Positions 29,626-34,428 of a DNA stretch of 64,000 nucleotides are shown here, piece after piece (position 1 is the first letter of the stretch; every line of letters starts with the position of its first letter). The notes under the pieces are model-generated. The model saw nothing but the letters and a program-made list of their open reading frames with translations, had not been told where the DNA came from and ran no database searches. Origin of the DNA: Nitrospirota bacterium (GTDB lineage: Bacteria; Nitrospirota; UBA9217); NCBI GenBank assembly GCA_963663225.1, contig OY760142.1:2080001-2144000 (forward strand), given 5' to 3'. The position numbers and the translations under genes were made by a program.

Positions 29626-30103
29626 ACTGCTCCGATTACCGCTGAAGACAATTTGTCAACAAAATATTTTCAGCAGTATACCATAGCTCACGAGGAGAGC
29701 AAAACAAAAATTACGCAGGTTCTTCTCATATGTTTTCGTGAATACGGGGCGGATTGACTTATCGGCATCAGCGTCTGTGTCGTGACACCACGAAATAACG
29801 CTGAAGAGTCGTTCCCGATTTTATTTTTCCTGCAGAATGCAGCTATATTCGTAAATAAATTATTCAAGAAAGTGTCGTTTTTGGCGAGTTTTTTTGCATT
29901 TTCCCCGGCAAAGGAAGCATTTCCCCTTCCAACGCACGGCCGTGCTTGCTGGTTTTTTGGCGGAGCATTAGCAGGCGACATAAACAAAAAAATACTTATA
30001 ACCAGAAAAAACTTTATTTTGCTTGGCTTTTTTTTGCTGTATGTTGATTATTTTGTTGATAAATTGTCTAACATGCTGAAATATAATTTTTTAATTTTTC
30101 TTG

Positions 30104-30137
30104 TTGACAAAATATACACTTTTGTTGTATATTTGTC
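30104..30137 (+). promoter_or_regulatory. Sigma-70 promoter overlapped by an imperfect palindrome (candidate operator)
   Basis: TTGACA-N18-TATATT; arms GACAAAATATACA and TGTATATTTGTC. Confidence 0.6.
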
Positions 30138-30154
30138 CACGAGGTGAACGTAAC

Positions 30155-30721
30155 GTGCTGACAAAACTCTTCTCTTCGACTAGAGCGGAGCTTTTAGGCC
30201 TGTTCTTTAACAATCCGGATGATCGCTTCTACCTGCGGGAAATAGCCCGCCATATCGGCAAAGATGCGGCAGGGATCAAGAGGGAGCTGGACAATCTGGT
30301 CAAGCTGGGACTTCTTGCGCGGGAGAAGCGGGGTGTTCAAAAATACTACTTCGCGAATAAGAGCTCTCCTGTTTTTTCCGAAATGAAGGGGTTGGTTTTT
30401 AAAACAACGGGAGTGCAGGGGGCCATGAAGGCGTCGCTTTCCCGGCTGAAAGGCGTCAAGGCCGCATTTATTTACGGGTCCTACGCCAAGGGAGCAGAAA
30501 AGGAAGACAGCAATATAAACCTTATGGTTGTCGGCCAAGCGAACATCACGGAATTGAACGACATGGTTATGGGCCTGGAAGAGAAGCTGAAGCGGGATAT
30601 CGATTATCTTGTTTTTGATGAGCAGGAATATCGAAAACGCAAAGAGACAAAGGATCCGTTCGTCAGGGAAATCCTGAAAGGGAAGAAAATATTCCTGGTG
30701 GGCAAAGAAGATGAATTATAG
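30155..30721 (+). CDS. wHTH + minimal nucleotidyltransferase (MNT) protein with degenerate catalytic motif
   Basis: YLREIAR...IKRELDNLVKLGLL wHTH; FIYGSYAKG-x6-NIN where the family has DxD; GTG start after GAGGTG. Confidence 0.85.
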   Translation: MLTKLFSSTRAELLGLFFNNPDDRFYLREIARHIGKDAAGIKRELDNLVKLGLLAREKRGVQKYYFANKSSPVFSEMKGLVFKTTGVQGAMKASLSRLKGVKAAFIYGSYAKGAEKEDSNINLMVVGQANITELNDMVMGLEEKLKRDIDYLVFDEQEYRKRKETKDPFVREILKGKKIFLVGKEDEL

Positions 30722-31196
30722 CCAGCTGAAGGAAACGGGAATCGTTGAAGAACGGGCTGCCGAGGTTTCGGAGATTATTGCGCTGGTAACGAGAGTGGAC
30801 CGTGATCTCGAAACAAGCAGATTGCTGTACGGGAAAGATGAAGAATGGGCCTTTGTAGCCGCGTATCAGGCTATGGCTCGTTCAGCGCGAGCGCTGATCC
30901 TGTCCGAAGGATACAGGCCAAAGGTTGTTCGGGGAAGGGACGCTCAGAAGACCGTGGTGACGGCGGCAGGCGTTATTCTTGGTGAACAGTTCAAGAGCCT
31001 CACGAACAAATTTGACCGGATGCGCAGAAAATACCAAAGCTTTATTGAAGATGCGGGCAGGATTATCTCCCGGTATGAGGCGGGGCAGGCCATTAAAGAT
31101 GCGGAGGAATTCACCGCGCTGGTCAATGCAAGAATCCGCGAGAAATATTCTCAGTTATCACTGCTGAATGATGTTCCTCAGCTTGTTTCAAGATAA
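30711..31196 (+). CDS. HEPN-domain protein with degenerate RNase motif
   Basis: RDLETS, WAFVAAYQAM, ALILSEGYRP, FDRMRRK, EAGQAIKDAEEF; overlaps MNT stop; protein contains no His. Confidence 0.8.
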   Translation: MNYSQLKETGIVEERAAEVSEIIALVTRVDRDLETSRLLYGKDEEWAFVAAYQAMARSARALILSEGYRPKVVRGRDAQKTVVTAAGVILGEQFKSLTNKFDRMRRKYQSFIEDAGRIISRYEAGQAIKDAEEFTALVNARIREKYSQLSLLNDVPQLVSR

Positions 31197-31243
31197 GGCC
31201 GCTTAGTTCACGAACGCGGTATGCCGAAAGGGGGTGGACAACA

Positions 31244-31300
31244 ATGGCAGCCAAGAAGAAAGCCAAGAAGAAGGCCAAGAAGAAAGCTAAGAAAAAGTAG
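31244..31300 (+). CDS. 18-aa Lys/Ala micropeptide MAAKKKAKKKAKKKAKKK
   Basis: RBS GAAAGGGGGTG at 31226-31236, ATG, four AKKK repeats that differ only at synonymous positions, TAG stop. Confidence 0.75.
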   Translation: MAAKKKAKKKAKKKAKKK

Positions 31301-31481
31301 TTTTCATAATGTAGTCCCCGATGAGGGACCGCCGGAGGCACTGAGACATGCCTCCGGCGCATTTACCGGAAACACTATCAACGAAATAAGAGTGCACTAT
31401 AAAAGAGTCCTTTTTTCGGACTGACTGGTCATAATTCCATCTTTCAACTATTCTCAGGATGAAAGGGGGTGATTTCATACC

Positions 31482-31538
31482 ATGGCGGCTAAAAAAAAGG
31501 CTCCGGCAAAAAAGGCAAAGAAGACCACAAAAAAATAA
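31482..31538 (+). CDS. 18-aa Lys-rich micropeptide MAAKKKAPAKKAKKTTKK
   Basis: Identical RBS GAAAGGGGGTG at 31461-31471; same MAAKKKA start encoded by different codons; TAA TAA stops. Confidence 0.72.
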   Translation: MAAKKKAPAKKAKKTTKK

Positions 31539-31590
31539 TAACCGAGACGGGGCAATGGTACAAAGGCCATGTCCTCAGTATTGAGTCTTT

Positions 31591-31625
31591 ACCACGAAGC
31601 TGGTCTTCGTGGTTTTGTTTTTTTA
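31591..31625 (+). terminator. Rho-independent terminator
   Basis: ACCACGAAG-ctggt-CTTCGTGGT followed by T-rich tail. Confidence 0.8.
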
Positions 31626-31766
31626 CCATATGCAAACGCGAAGTTTTCTGCTGTAGTTTTGCATAAATTCCGGTATTATTACTGCAAGCTTTCCCCGTAC
31701 GGGCAGATATATGACCAGTCTCTGCTTTTCCCGCGACCGGAAGGCAGCCGAAGAACGTCGATTCCT

Positions 31767-32099
31767 ATGCGTAAGCGGAATTATATAAAAATTGATCGAG
31801 GTTCCCGGACCGACGGACGGAAGAAATTGCTTATTGCGCTCGGCATTCTTCTTACTGCTTACCTCATATCGTCGTGCATTTTCGGGGAGATGGGGCTTAT
31901 AAAATACTACCGTATGAAAATGCAGTGCAATGCCTTGACAGACGAAATTGCGCTCCTGAAGCGAGACAATGCAAAACTCAGAAAACATGTCTATTCCCTG
32001 AAAAACGATCCTCTCTACATCGAACGCATCGCGCGTGACAAATTGGGCCTTGCACGCCCAGGGGAGATAGTGTACTATTACAGCGAACAGAAAGACTGA
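31767..32099 (+). CDS. ftsB: Septum formation initiator FtsB/DivIC family
   Basis: One TM, FGEMGL, coiled coil, IERIARDKLGLARPGE. Confidence 0.82.
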   Translation: MRKRNYIKIDRGSRTDGRKKLLIALGILLTAYLISSCIFGEMGLIKYYRMKMQCNALTDEIALLKRDNAKLRKHVYSLKNDPLYIERIARDKLGLARPGEIVYYYSEQKD

Positions 32100-32223
32100 A
32101 GTACTTTACAGAAACCGAATCATTGCTTTGTGCCGTAGTGAACTGCAGAAATGACCCAGGCAGTTTGATCGCAGCATGCCGTAGGGACCCAGGGGGCGGA
32201 GGTGCCCCTGCTTCGCCACGTCC

Positions 32224-34428
32224 ATGTCAGACCATCCACTTTCCATAGCATTTATCTGGCACATGCACCAGCCCTATTACAAGGATGACATTACAGGGTC
32301 TTACATCCTTCCCTGGGTGCGGCTGCATGGAACGAAAGATTATTATGACATGCCGGCACTCCTTGCCGATTTTCCCCAGGTCCACCAGACATTCAATCTT
32401 GTTCCTTCACTTCTCAAGCAGATTCTCGATTATGTTGAGAATGGAGCCACGGACAAGTTTCTCGACCTGACGCTCAAACCGGCGGCAGACCTGGACCCCG
32501 AAGATAAACAATTCCTGCTTAAGAATTCCTTTATGGCGAACTGGGACACCATGATTAAGCCTTACCGGTCGTATTGGCAGCTGCTCGACCGCAGAGGCTA
32601 CAGTGTTGCCGACAACGACCTCCAGAATGCCATGCGGTATTTCAGCACGCAGGATTATCTCGATTTGCAGGTCTGGTTCAACCTGACCTGGTTTGATCCG
32701 CTCTTTAAACAAAACGATCCTTTTTTGAAGGAATTGGTGCAAAAAGGTGCCGGATTTACCGAAAAAGAAAAGCAGCTTCTTGTACAGAAACAGAGAGACG
32801 TCATGGCGCTTATCATTCCTGAGTACAGGCGCCTTGCAGAAATAGGCAGCATCGAGCTTACCACCACCCCGTTTTATCATCCCATTCTGCCCTTGCTGTA
32901 TGATACTGATCTTGCGAGGGTTGCCGTTCCCGATATCCACCTCCCCGCGGAGCGCTTTGCACACCCGGAGGACGCAAAAATCCAGGTTGAACGCGCCATT
33001 GCCTATCATGAAAAACTTTTTGGATTGCGGCCGGCCGGCATGTGGCCTGCAGAAGGATCAGTTGCCGAAGACATTATTCCATTGCTTGCTGATGCCGGAA
33101 TCAAATGGATTGGCACGGATGAAGGAGTGCTCGCCCGGTCGCTCGGCATCCATCTTGATCGAGATTTTTCGGGAGTATTGAAAAACCCCGAAGCCCTCTA
33201 TAAACCGTATCTGGCGGGCAAAGGGGGAAAAAATGTTTCCATCGTATTCCGTGACCATACGCTTTCCGACCTTGTAGGTTTCGTGTATTCCAAATGGGAT
33301 TATAAAAATGCGGCAAATGATCTTATTGACCGGCTCCATCGCATACGGCAGGGGCTGTCACACGGTCCGCACTTGGTTTCCATCATCCTGGACGGAGAAA
33401 ACGCCTGGGAATATTATCAAAACGACGGAAGAGATTTCTTCCTGTATCTCTATGAGCGCCTGAGCAAAGAGCAGGGGCTTCGGTGCGTGACGGTAGGAGA
33501 ATATCTGAGGGAAAACTCCGCTCAGGCGGGCATTGAACGGCTTCATGCCGGCTCGTGGATTAATGCAAATTATCGGATCTGGATCGGGCATGAAGAGGAC
33601 AACCGGGCCTGGGATCTGCTTGCGCAGACGCGCCGGGCGCTGACGGACTATGCGTCCGGAAACGGTGATTCGTCTAAGCTGGCCCAGGCATGGGAAGAGA
33701 TATACATTGCCGAAGGGAGTGACTGGTGCTGGTGGTATGGCGACGATCATTTTTCTGAAAATGATGCAGAGTTTGATCTTTTGTTCAGAACGCACTTGAT
33801 GAATGTGTATCGCACCATAGGCCTTGATATTCCGGACGATCTTCGGATACCCATACTTCGTGAAGACCGGCAGGCGCTCCCGACGGTCGAACTGACGGCT
33901 TTGATTTCTCCTGCTATTGACGGACAAGTCACGAATTATTTCGAATGGCTGCCGGCGGGTTGTTATGACGTGAGCCAGGGAGGGGGGGCCATGCACCGGG
34001 GGGCCTCCATTATCACGCATATTTATTATGGCTTCGATCTGAAAAATATGTTTATCCGGCTTGATCCCGGCGGAAATCTTAATGATGCTAAAGTCTCAGA
34101 TTTGGCTTTTTTCATCAATTTTTTAAATCCTCGCGGTCTTGATGTGGAAGTGCGCATCGTTCCTCAGGAGCGGCAGGTGAACGCAGCCCTTTTCCGTGGT
34201 GAAAACGGTGACCGCAAACAACTTGCAGACATCCATACCGTTGCCGCGAAGGATATCATCGAACTTGCCGTACCCTTTGACCTCATAGGTCTGCGGGCCA
34301 ATGACGAGGTGCAGCTCTTTATCACGGTTGAAAGGACCGGCTCCGAAGTTGAAAAATGGCCCTACCGCGGATATATTCAGTTCAAAGTGCCTACCGAGGA
34401 TTTTGAGGCAACTATGTGGCAGGTCTAA
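32224..34428 (+). CDS. Glycoside hydrolase family 57 (amylopullulanase-like)
   Basis: WHMHQP, PWVRLH, HPILPL, WPAEG, LDGENAWE, AEGSDWCWW. Confidence 0.92.
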   Translation: MSDHPLSIAFIWHMHQPYYKDDITGSYILPWVRLHGTKDYYDMPALLADFPQVHQTFNLVPSLLKQILDYVENGATDKFLDLTLKPAADLDPEDKQFLLKNSFMANWDTMIKPYRSYWQLLDRRGYSVADNDLQNAMRYFSTQDYLDLQVWFNLTWFDPLFKQNDPFLKELVQKGAGFTEKEKQLLVQKQRDVMALIIPEYRRLAEIGSIELTTTPFYHPILPLLYDTDLARVAVPDIHLPAERFAHPEDAKIQVERAIAYHEKLFGLRPAGMWPAEGSVAEDIIPLLADAGIKWIGTDEGVLARSLGIHLDRDFSGVLKNPEALYKPYLAGKGGKNVSIVFRDHTLSDLVGFVYSKWDYKNAANDLIDRLHRIRQGLSHGPHLVSIILDGENAWEYYQNDGRDFFLYLYERLSKEQGLRCVTVGEYLRENSAQAGIERLHAGSWINANYRIWIGHEEDNRAWDLLAQTRRALTDYASGNGDSSKLAQAWEEIYIAEGSDWCWWYGDDHFSENDAEFDLLFRTHLMNVYRTIGLDIPDDLRIPILREDRQALPTVELTALISPAIDGQVTNYFEWLPAGCYDVSQGGGAMHRGASIITHIYYGFDLKNMFIRLDPGGNLNDAKVSDLAFFINFLNPRGLDVEVRIVPQERQVNAALFRGENGDRKQLADIHTVAAKDIIELAVPFDLIGLRANDEVQLFITVERTGSEVEKWPYRGYIQFKVPTEDFEATMWQV

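Follow-up and report, generated by a model that had tools for sequence, protein, structure and literature searches.

The H1-like proteins, rich in lysine, alanine and proline, include AlgP, Hc1/Hc2 and the PAKK tail of mycobacterial HupB, and tails of the H1 type usually conserve their composition only. The very small basic ribosomal proteins, represented by bS22, bL37, Thx and the eukaryotic eL41, mix arginine and lysine and are not simple repeats. An open reading frame (ORF) with a run of codons for one amino acid, followed by a terminator, is the hallmark of ribosome-mediated attenuators. Here, we describe two ORFs of 18 codons, pep1 and pep2, which lie in tandem within a 64,000-nucleotide stretch of the genome of a Nitrospirota bacterium (contig OY760142.1, positions 2,080,001 to 2,144,000; hereafter the window, to which coordinates refer unless a genome position is given). 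We infer that both are real micro-genes translated in vivo, and we assign a probability of roughly one half to the reading that their products are polycationic peptides that bind a cellular polyanion, in the nucleoid or in the ribosome.

Both ORFs are located on the + strand, pep1 at 31244–31300 (ATG at 31244, 18 codons, stop TAG: MAAKKKAKKKAKKKAKKK) and pep2 at 31482–31538 (ATG at 31482, 18 codons, stop TAA: MAAKKKAPAKKAKKTTKK). An earlier note on this DNA had reported two lysine micro-ORFs of equal length, 18 amino acids, behind one shared 11-nt ribosome-binding site, and every one of its sequence claims holds; the region that it covered, 31226–31538, runs from the first base of the first GAAAGGGGGTG to the last base of the pep2 stop. 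Lysine codons account for 12 of the 18 codons in pep1 and for 9 of the 18 in pep2. As peptides, pep1 corresponds to (AKKK)4 and pep2 to KKAPAKKAKKTTKK, with no acidic or hydrophobic residues in either and a net charge of about +9 to +12. As had also been claimed, the 12-nt units of pep1 (GCC AAG AAG AAA, GCC AAG AAG AAG, GCC AAG AAG AAA, and GCT AAG AAA AAG) differ at third codon positions only, and within the shared MAAKKKA the third base differs between pep1 and pep2 in six out of six non-Met codons. Matches to the codon pattern of KKKAKKKAKKK (AARAARAARGCN...) were confined to pep1 within the window, and none appeared in 100 dinucleotide-preserving shuffles of it.

Each ORF is preceded by an extended Shine–Dalgarno (SD) sequence, GAAAGGGGGTG, placed at 31226–31236 (+), 7 nt before the ATG of pep1, and at 31461–31471 (+), 10 nt before that of pep2. 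These two sites are the only copies of GAAAGGGGGTG on both strands of the 3,255,001-base genome. At the pep1 SD, CCGAAAGGGGGTGGA is invariant in all aligned relatives. The 16S rRNA terminus reads ...GGATCACCTCCTTTCT, and its 3' end (...GATCACCTCCTTTCT) is complementary to the pep1 SD with the exception of one G-U, so that both SDs are expected to pair with 16S rRNA over 11–13 bases.

The conservation of the locus was analysed in 64 genomes of the class, in which the family of the window genome is the sole family among the genomes examined. A DNA search with 31150–31700 gave matches in 22 of the 24 same-family genomes, and two short weak matches only in 16 genomes from other families of the phylum. 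Twenty loci were returned, one of them the window's own region; both ORFs were present in all 18 loci spanning both sites, the remaining two being cut by contig ends. A pattern made up of the SD and the start of pep1 was detected in 58 of the 64 class genomes, with 32/32 among those at least 90% complete and no match for the reversed-pattern control, and it occurred once per genome, except in one case (G024, two matches on two contigs). The pep2 core, KKAPAKKAKKT, was found in 45 of 63 class relatives and in none of 337 genomes of the phylum's other families; among the 18 relatives missed by this pattern, some hold variants of it (e.g., ...AKKAT... or ...AKKVT...). Public records with the same SD and ORF provided 12 loci, all of them titled Nitrospirota, Nitrospiria or Nitrospiraceae.

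The codons of 35 unique pep1 and 36 unique pep2 DNA versions (71 ORFs, 760 Lys codons) were then compared. No AAC/AAT, AGA/AGG, GAA/GAG, CAA/CAG or ATA codon was present in any of them, AAA and AAG swap freely, and the codons for Ala (GCN), Thr (ACN) and Pro (CCN) vary at the third base only. Variable columns at codon positions 1, 2 and 3 numbered 13, 10 and 48 for pep1 (78 columns each) and 18, 13 and 35 for pep2 (37 each), some of this variation at positions 1 and 2 being misalignment between equal-length forms. Length differences among relatives consist of whole codons (e.g., GCC ACC). The stop is TAG in the 35 pep1 versions, and TAA in 30 and TAG in 6 of those of pep2. The ATG of MAAKKK is the conserved start, since the in-frame ATG that some relatives have further upstream falls into another frame in the window. 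The absence of these codons, the free third positions and the whole-codon indels exclude a microsatellite. The codon pattern also argues against an A-R-N RNA motif, as such a motif would tolerate AGN and AAY. The protein-level selection proposed in the earlier note, as opposed to a microsatellite, is thus supported (pep1 with its SD in 58/64 class genomes, both ORFs in 18/18 loci, and 760 Lys codons without AAY, AGR, GAR or CAR), and the loss of frame and ribosome-binding site that it had named as contrary evidence was not observed, the relatives keeping frame, start, stop and ribosome-binding site.

Across 19 genera, the A-P-A and T-T residues of pep2 are retained with synonymous changes, and the sequences of pep1 and pep2 stay distinct from each other. 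These conserved non-Lys residues and separate identities point to selection on the peptides themselves. Our comparisons show that both ORFs behave as core, single-copy, class-wide genes under coding-type purifying selection that extends to their SDs and stops, each being strongly basic and shorter than 35 amino acids. As a separate observation, two genera carried three tandem ORFs, corresponding to pep1, a pep1 duplicate and pep2 (L175 in G009:C96 and L177 in G014:C270), each with its own GGGGGTG SD, which indicates that the locus grows by tandem duplication.

Codon choice in pep1 departs from that of its genome, with AAG representing 78% of its Lys codons versus 38% in the genome's long ORFs, which prefer AAA. 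As a consequence of this preference, A-runs in pep1 do not exceed 6 bases, which would fit selection against poly-A slippage during expression. The genome encodes tRNA-Lys(CUU) as well as tRNA-Lys(UUU), and the idea of an AAG-rich pep1 acting as a sensor of wobble-U modification is weakened by the presence of the cognate tRNA-Lys(CUU) gene.

Searches of databases with these peptides are constrained by their size, as the 18-mers themselves are shorter than the 20-amino-acid minimum of the protein look-up and of the profile search. The commonest 20-amino-acid form of pep1 in relatives and a 22-amino-acid paralogue were used instead, and neither was present in a collection of 15 billion proteins (exact look-up), nor did they match any NCBIfam family at E values up to 10, a search in which low complexity defeats profiles. 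No such peptides were found in the full-text literature, although supplementary small-ORF tables, beyond the reach of that search, may contain them.

Both ORFs are embedded in conserved RNA structures. A 5' stem-loop (GCCGC-loop-GCGGU, 31198–31220, +) starts 2 nt past the stop of the upstream HEPN gene, and its five pairs were kept by RNAalifold in 39 of 39 unique sequences, with an invariant stem and a variable loop. After pep1, a small hairpin (GUCCC/GGGAC, 31314–31329, +) was detected both by RNAalifold, with four pairs mostly kept, and in the fold of the window's own sequence. It is followed by a 10-bp G+C-rich hairpin, CGCCGGAGGC/GCCUCCGGCG (31330–31359), and CAUUU (whole element 31330–31364, +), in which five of nine consensus pairs have compensatory double changes, including the window's own GGAGG/CCUCC. 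This element would serve the pep1 unit as a 3' structure, either terminator-like or stabilising, and was not called by the terminator scan because of its short U-tract. Downstream of pep2, an intrinsic terminator (ACCACGAAG-CUGGU-CUUCGUGGU followed by UUUGUUUUUU, 31591–31623, +) was identified by the terminator scan and by RNAalifold, with nine pairs over 41 unique sequences; its stem is near-invariant class-wide and its loop variable, and the stretch between the pep2 stop and this terminator varies in sequence and length. The hairpin and terminator elements of the locus occur nowhere else in the genome. A scan of 30600–32300 for sigma-70-like promoters gave none. Two further pairings were considered and discarded: an antiterminator between the 3' codons of pep2 (GAAGACCA) and the terminator, in which only 4 nt are conserved, and pairing of the SD with the 3' arm of the pep1 hairpin, which is possible on paper and disfavoured in the fold. 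Between the two units, a hairpin (AGTCC-TTTTTTC-GGACT, 31406–31422), flagged by the scan as a minus-strand terminator-like site, is conserved within the genus only.

Contigs assembled from RNA libraries (three runs from two studies) matched the locus at 88% identity or higher along 31194–31458 (X4), 31343–31528 (X6) and 31226–31381 (X8, a 164-nt contig); they are sequences of close relatives, in which uncovered parts and contig depths are uninterpretable. Together they extend from the pep1 unit through the pep1–pep2 spacer, which they bridge, into the beginning of pep2, and they indicate presence in the libraries only.

Regarding the genomic context, the neighbours of the locus are a divergent DEAD-box helicase gene and, just upstream on the same strand, genes for an MntA-like nucleotidyltransferase and the HEPN protein that follows it, with pep1 starting 48 nt after the HEPN gene. 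An FtsB/DivIC gene and a GH57 enzyme are found downstream. This gene order is stable in the class, and the order pep2–terminator–FtsB/DivIC was kept in 10 of the 12 class loci subjected to neighbour clustering. Neither here nor in the other lineages inspected were these ORFs placed among ribosomal or translation genes. The genome has three HU/IHF-family genes and a spermidine synthase match, so a replacement of polyamines or of HU was rejected, and pep1 and pep2 are an addition to these functions. Regarding the nucleotidyltransferase/HEPN pair itself (30101–31196, +), the nucleotidyltransferase has an N-terminal winged-helix part, the two ORFs overlap, and the pair lies beside pep1 in the 12 class loci clustered, which is unusually stable for a pair of toxin–antitoxin type.

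Elsewhere in the genome, the motif GAAAGG[AG]GGTG occurs at 14 non-rRNA sites, four of them ahead of Lys-rich micro-ORFs. A third micro-ORF of this kind, MACGKKCGAKKKATKKKATKKK (G000:C1:1454027–1454095, +), is preceded by a perfect 12-nt SD and immediately followed by a strong terminator; this ORF (MACGKKCG...) was rejected as a member of the conserved set, a similar one being present in 3 of the 64 class genomes only. The fourth, MAKAPKAVKKSKGGKKC (G000:C1:1435–1488, +), has a perfect 13-nt SD and closely follows a 93-amino-acid ORF with an identical SD.

The presence of similar micro-ORFs beyond the class was examined with the pattern ATG-(A/P)-A-KKK-A-KKK-A on one genome per species, which produced at least 119 stretches, of which 80 loci were analysed; the first 11 codons of these ORFs are imposed by the pattern itself. 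They contained 78 complete ORFs, 60 of them stand-alone of 14–25 amino acids and 62 not longer than 28, and nearly all of these 62 showed a recognisable SD (judged by eye, uncounted) and a downstream hairpin. According to the record titles, 12 loci belonged to Nitrospirota, 12 to Binatia and look-alikes, and 10 to Burkholderiales/Betaproteobacteria, and further ones to Rhodospirillales, Gammaproteobacteria of the Acidiferrobacter/Sulfuricaulis type, Gemmatimonadota, Terriglobales, Planctomycetota, Verrucomicrobiota, candidate-phyla bacteria and two archaeal-labelled bins. Thus, the look-alikes span at least ten phylum-level labels, bearing in mind that labels of metagenome bins can be wrong. 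The remaining 18 pattern matches are N-termini of longer proteins, ten of them Lys/Ala/Pro-rich proteins of 43–170 amino acids. Two long Lys/Ala/Pro proteins gave no Pfam family. In one HU-family protein (PF00216; L090:3223–3615, +), a 33-residue N-terminal extension (MAAKKKAKKKAAKKK...) begins with MAAKKKAKKKA. The same pattern in viral contigs gave 12 matches, all of them in proteins of 60–451 amino acids and none in a micro-ORF, so that a phage origin is not supported. In the window genome, outside this pattern, a 118-amino-acid protein (G000:C1:1858362, +; L252:563–916) combines a Cys-rich, zinc-ribbon-like head (CxxC...CC) with a 60-residue Lys/Ala/Thr tail (KKKATKKKTTKKK...); two or more further genera of the class have conserved it (L176, L180), and no family was found for it in Pfam or NCBIfam.

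Relatives of the Binatia and Burkholderiales types were additionally sampled by DNA similarity, without the ORF pattern. Among relatives of a Binatia-type genome, 27 of 41 matched (26/40 without one genome flagged as unpublished), and MAAKKKAKKKAKKK(K)K or one of its near variants was present in 27 of 28 usable loci. For the Burkholderiales type, matches were found in 30 of 41 genomes (29/40 without one flagged as unpublished), with MAAKKKAKKKAAKKKAAKKK or a variant in 23 of 29 usable loci. In both groups, Lys codons swap AAA/AAG only, barring five AGA, mostly C-terminal. In 21 of 23 loci, the Burkholderiales-type micro-ORF follows the diaminopimelate decarboxylase gene, lysA, in the same orientation, with a gap of usually about 300–400 nt; the LysA assignment is based on TIGR01048 (515 bits against a cut-off of 298), and LysA proteins are 58–73% identical while the micro-ORF peptide is almost unchanged. 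A single lysine gene among about 16 neighbour positions could be due to chance, with a probability of a few per cent by rough estimate. In the Binatia type, the 5' leader and SD are complementary, by eye, to a conserved segment after the ORF (TCGCCTGAG...AAGGAGG–ORF–CCTCCTT..CTCAGGCGA), so that the SD would be sequestered once the transcript is complete. No neighbour gene shared between phyla was found among the lineages inspected.

Other features of these lineages were also observed. The Burkholderiales-type ORF (L210–L231, L238) often closes with tandem TAG TAG stops. Binatia-type loci (L055, L068, L071, L095, L101, L123, L181–L208) have a strong terminator after the paired mini-mRNA, and their downstream genes are TlpA-, CcdA-, FolE- and PepA-like by eye only, without profile confirmation. 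In Rhodospirillales-type loci (L061, L130), MAAKKKAKKKAAKKKK lies about 340 nt downstream of an ftsY-like gene, also by eye and without profile confirmation.

In the reading that we favour, each unit would be formed by a 5' hairpin or leader, an unusually long SD, an 18-codon ORF and a 3' hairpin or terminator, and a single pep1–pep2 transcript may end at the strong terminator at 31591–31623. Efficient translation would release free Lys/Ala polycations, which, being presumably unable to fold alone, would have to act by binding a polyanion, most likely through electrostatic binding in the nucleoid or the ribosome. On DNA, they would then resemble a detached Lys/Ala tail of histone H1 type; on rRNA, a tiny protein of the ribosomal type. 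We further infer that it is the peptide that functions, and not its translation as such, with nucleic acid as the probable target of the peptide. The H1-type option is suggested by the use of Lys and not Arg, by the AKKK and KKAPAKK motifs and by the fusion of the same string to HU. The ribosomal option is suggested by the letter-perfect conservation and the core-gene behaviour, as in proteins with a fixed rRNA site; the near-invariance of pep2 across 19 genera is easier to reconcile with a specific partner than with a loose coat of H1 type.

Several observations weigh against this proposal. Arg never substitutes for Lys, although the charge would be kept, an absence not predicted by a pure charge function and which therefore fits a codon- or lysine-specific role. 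The betaproteobacterial-type ORF is linked to lysA, and the neighbouring genes of other lineages do not point to the nucleoid or the ribosome. The presence of HU/IHF genes and of a spermidine synthase leaves no obvious gap for the peptides to fill. The 5' stem, the SD and the stem of the pep2 terminator vary less than synonymous sites in the ORFs do, so a role at the RNA level may co-exist or dominate, and the highly conserved hairpins may have a dual role. The RNA data, being assembled contigs, are silent on level, ends and strand. Finally, because of low complexity, homology of the micro-ORFs between phyla cannot be shown, and an independent origin in different phyla is possible.

The rival that best survives, which we nevertheless consider unlikely, is that translation of the 9–12 Lys codons is itself the signal, reporting on the supply of lysine or Lys-tRNA or on the capacity to decode AAG/AAA, the peptide being a by-product. 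Such a sensor would act on the same RNA or on a downstream gene, here ftsB, by controlling its termination, stability or translation. The two short ORFs, with 12 and 9 Lys codons out of 18, have the composition of attenuator leaders, and a strong terminator and, beyond it, the FtsB/DivIC gene come after pep2, an order seen in the 10 of 12 class loci mentioned above. The same-strand position of the betaproteobacterial-type ORF next to lysA (21/23 loci), the lack of Lys to Arg replacements and the Binatia-type SD paired by eye with a conserved downstream anti-SD are also compatible with it. A precedent exists in B. subtilis, where an AAG-containing abrB leader peptide can regulate a downstream gene (PMC13733827). 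However, codons for A-P-A and T-T in pep2 change only synonymously, so that these amino acids are kept, the interval from the stop of pep2 to its terminator is variable in sequence and length, and RNAalifold finds the terminator only, with no conserved alternative pairing. The genes downstream differ between lineages or sit on the opposite strand, and the ORFs are not found upstream of genes for making or importing lysine, as the downstream gene here is FtsB/DivIC and the betaproteobacterial ORF comes after lysA, not before it. In addition, AAG has its cognate tRNA-Lys(CUU) besides tRNA-Lys(UUU), and a sensor needs no two different tandem ORFs.

Far less probable is that the units are small noncoding RNAs in which the A-A-R triplets form an RNA motif, such as the (ARN)n of the Hfq distal face, the ORFs being incidental. 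The hairpin stems and the pep2 terminator, near-invariant while their loops vary, would be expected from such RNAs, and AAG/AAA repeats are inherently A-R-N triplets. Yet none of the 760 Lys codon positions holds the AGN or AAY codons that an ARN motif would tolerate; ATG, SD spacing (7–10 nt) and stop are conserved, indels are of whole codons, and other phyla keep ORF, SD and stop amid unrelated flanking RNA. Rfam gave no meaningful match in 30900–32000 at E values up to 10, and, at gathering score in 15 loci of other lineages, it gave two tRNAs located elsewhere in the loci and nothing more. An RNA-only function is thus unlikely as the sole explanation.

Polylysine is antimicrobial when acting from outside, and type I toxin mRNAs offer a comparison for 5'–3' pairing that hides an SD. 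Nonetheless, that the peptides are harmful polycations, either toxin-like under tight translational control or secreted as antimicrobials, and perhaps tied to the nucleotidyltransferase/HEPN pair that adjoins pep1 (48 nt) in 12/12 class loci clustered, is hardly credible even considering the Binatia-type pairing that recalls such mRNAs, because these are single-copy core genes in 32/32 high-quality genomes with stable synteny, unlike mobile toxin modules, the window shows neither a signal peptide nor an exporter or immunity gene close by, the nucleotidyltransferase/HEPN neighbour is absent from the other lineages inspected, and the very strong SDs argue for high, not minimal, expression.

Extending the favoured reading of nucleic-acid-binding peptides to the look-alikes in other phyla, we tentatively propose that free polylysine peptides of 14–22 residues could be widespread, hitherto invisible core products of bacteria ("bacterial protamines" or lysine-only micro-ribosomal proteins), present in the Nitrospirota-labelled class, in the Binatia, Burkholderiales and Rhodospirillales types and in others. 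Each would be produced from its own structured mini-mRNA with an extra-long SD, would be near letter-perfect within its lineage and would have a specific nucleic-acid partner; the linkage to lysA in betaproteobacteria suggests that their supply is perhaps coupled to lysine metabolism. Lysine peptides of 18 residues escape gene callers, profile libraries and tryptic proteomics. That a pair of genes for them is conserved in single copy throughout a class indicates a blind spot of bacterial annotation, the more so given the look-alikes under ten or more phylum-level labels. If binding to DNA or to the ribosome were true, these would be the smallest known genetically encoded components of a bacterial nucleoid or ribosome, and a simple model for comparing lysine-only with arginine-rich polycations. 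If they sensed lysine or Lys-tRNA instead, they would be a new type of amino-acid sensor, one that does not lie ahead of the pathway whose state it reports. In both cases, the locus offers precise testable constructs, namely the two ORFs, their SDs and three conserved hairpins.

In comparison with known systems, the resemblance to H1 tails and bacterial PAKK repeats put forward in the earlier note holds in composition only. As in H1 tails and the bacterial H1-like proteins, pep1 and pep2 combine Lys with Ala, Pro and Thr, have no Arg codon in 71 ORFs and contain the AKKK and KKAPAKKAKK motifs, and a pep-type N-terminal string heads the HU-family protein (L090) and the Lys/Ala/Pro proteins of 43–170 amino acids. 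However, H1-like proteins have tens to hundreds of residues, usually with the tail on or beside a folded domain, whereas pep1 and pep2 have 18, lack a folded domain, are stand-alone in all relatives and are each encoded on their own structured mini-transcript. Moreover, unlike in H1-type tails, their exact sequence is near-invariant across 19 genera. With bS22, bL37, Thx and eL41, they share a length below 35 residues, a highly basic character, single-copy core status and strong translation signals, as well as a degree of sequence conservation far above that of adjacent enzymes (LysA is 58–73% identical in loci whose micro-ORFs are about identical); they differ from these ribosomal proteins in the lack of Arg and in their location outside ribosomal-protein operons in every lineage inspected.

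Protamines and the adenovirus core peptide mu are, like pep1 and pep2, free, short, encoded polycations, thought in their case to neutralise nucleic acid, although those are Arg-rich or viral/eukaryotic, while the peptides described here are Lys-only, cellular and encoded by core genes of free-living bacteria. With attenuator leader peptides, including the AAG-containing one of abrB (PMC13733827), they share a short ORF dominated by the codons of one amino acid and followed by a terminator, and they differ in having no conserved alternative structure, no fixed spacing and conserved non-Lys residues. On balance, pep1 and pep2 would be best filed with the short polycationic nucleic-acid-binding proteins, as candidate members only of either the H1-like or the ribosomal group.

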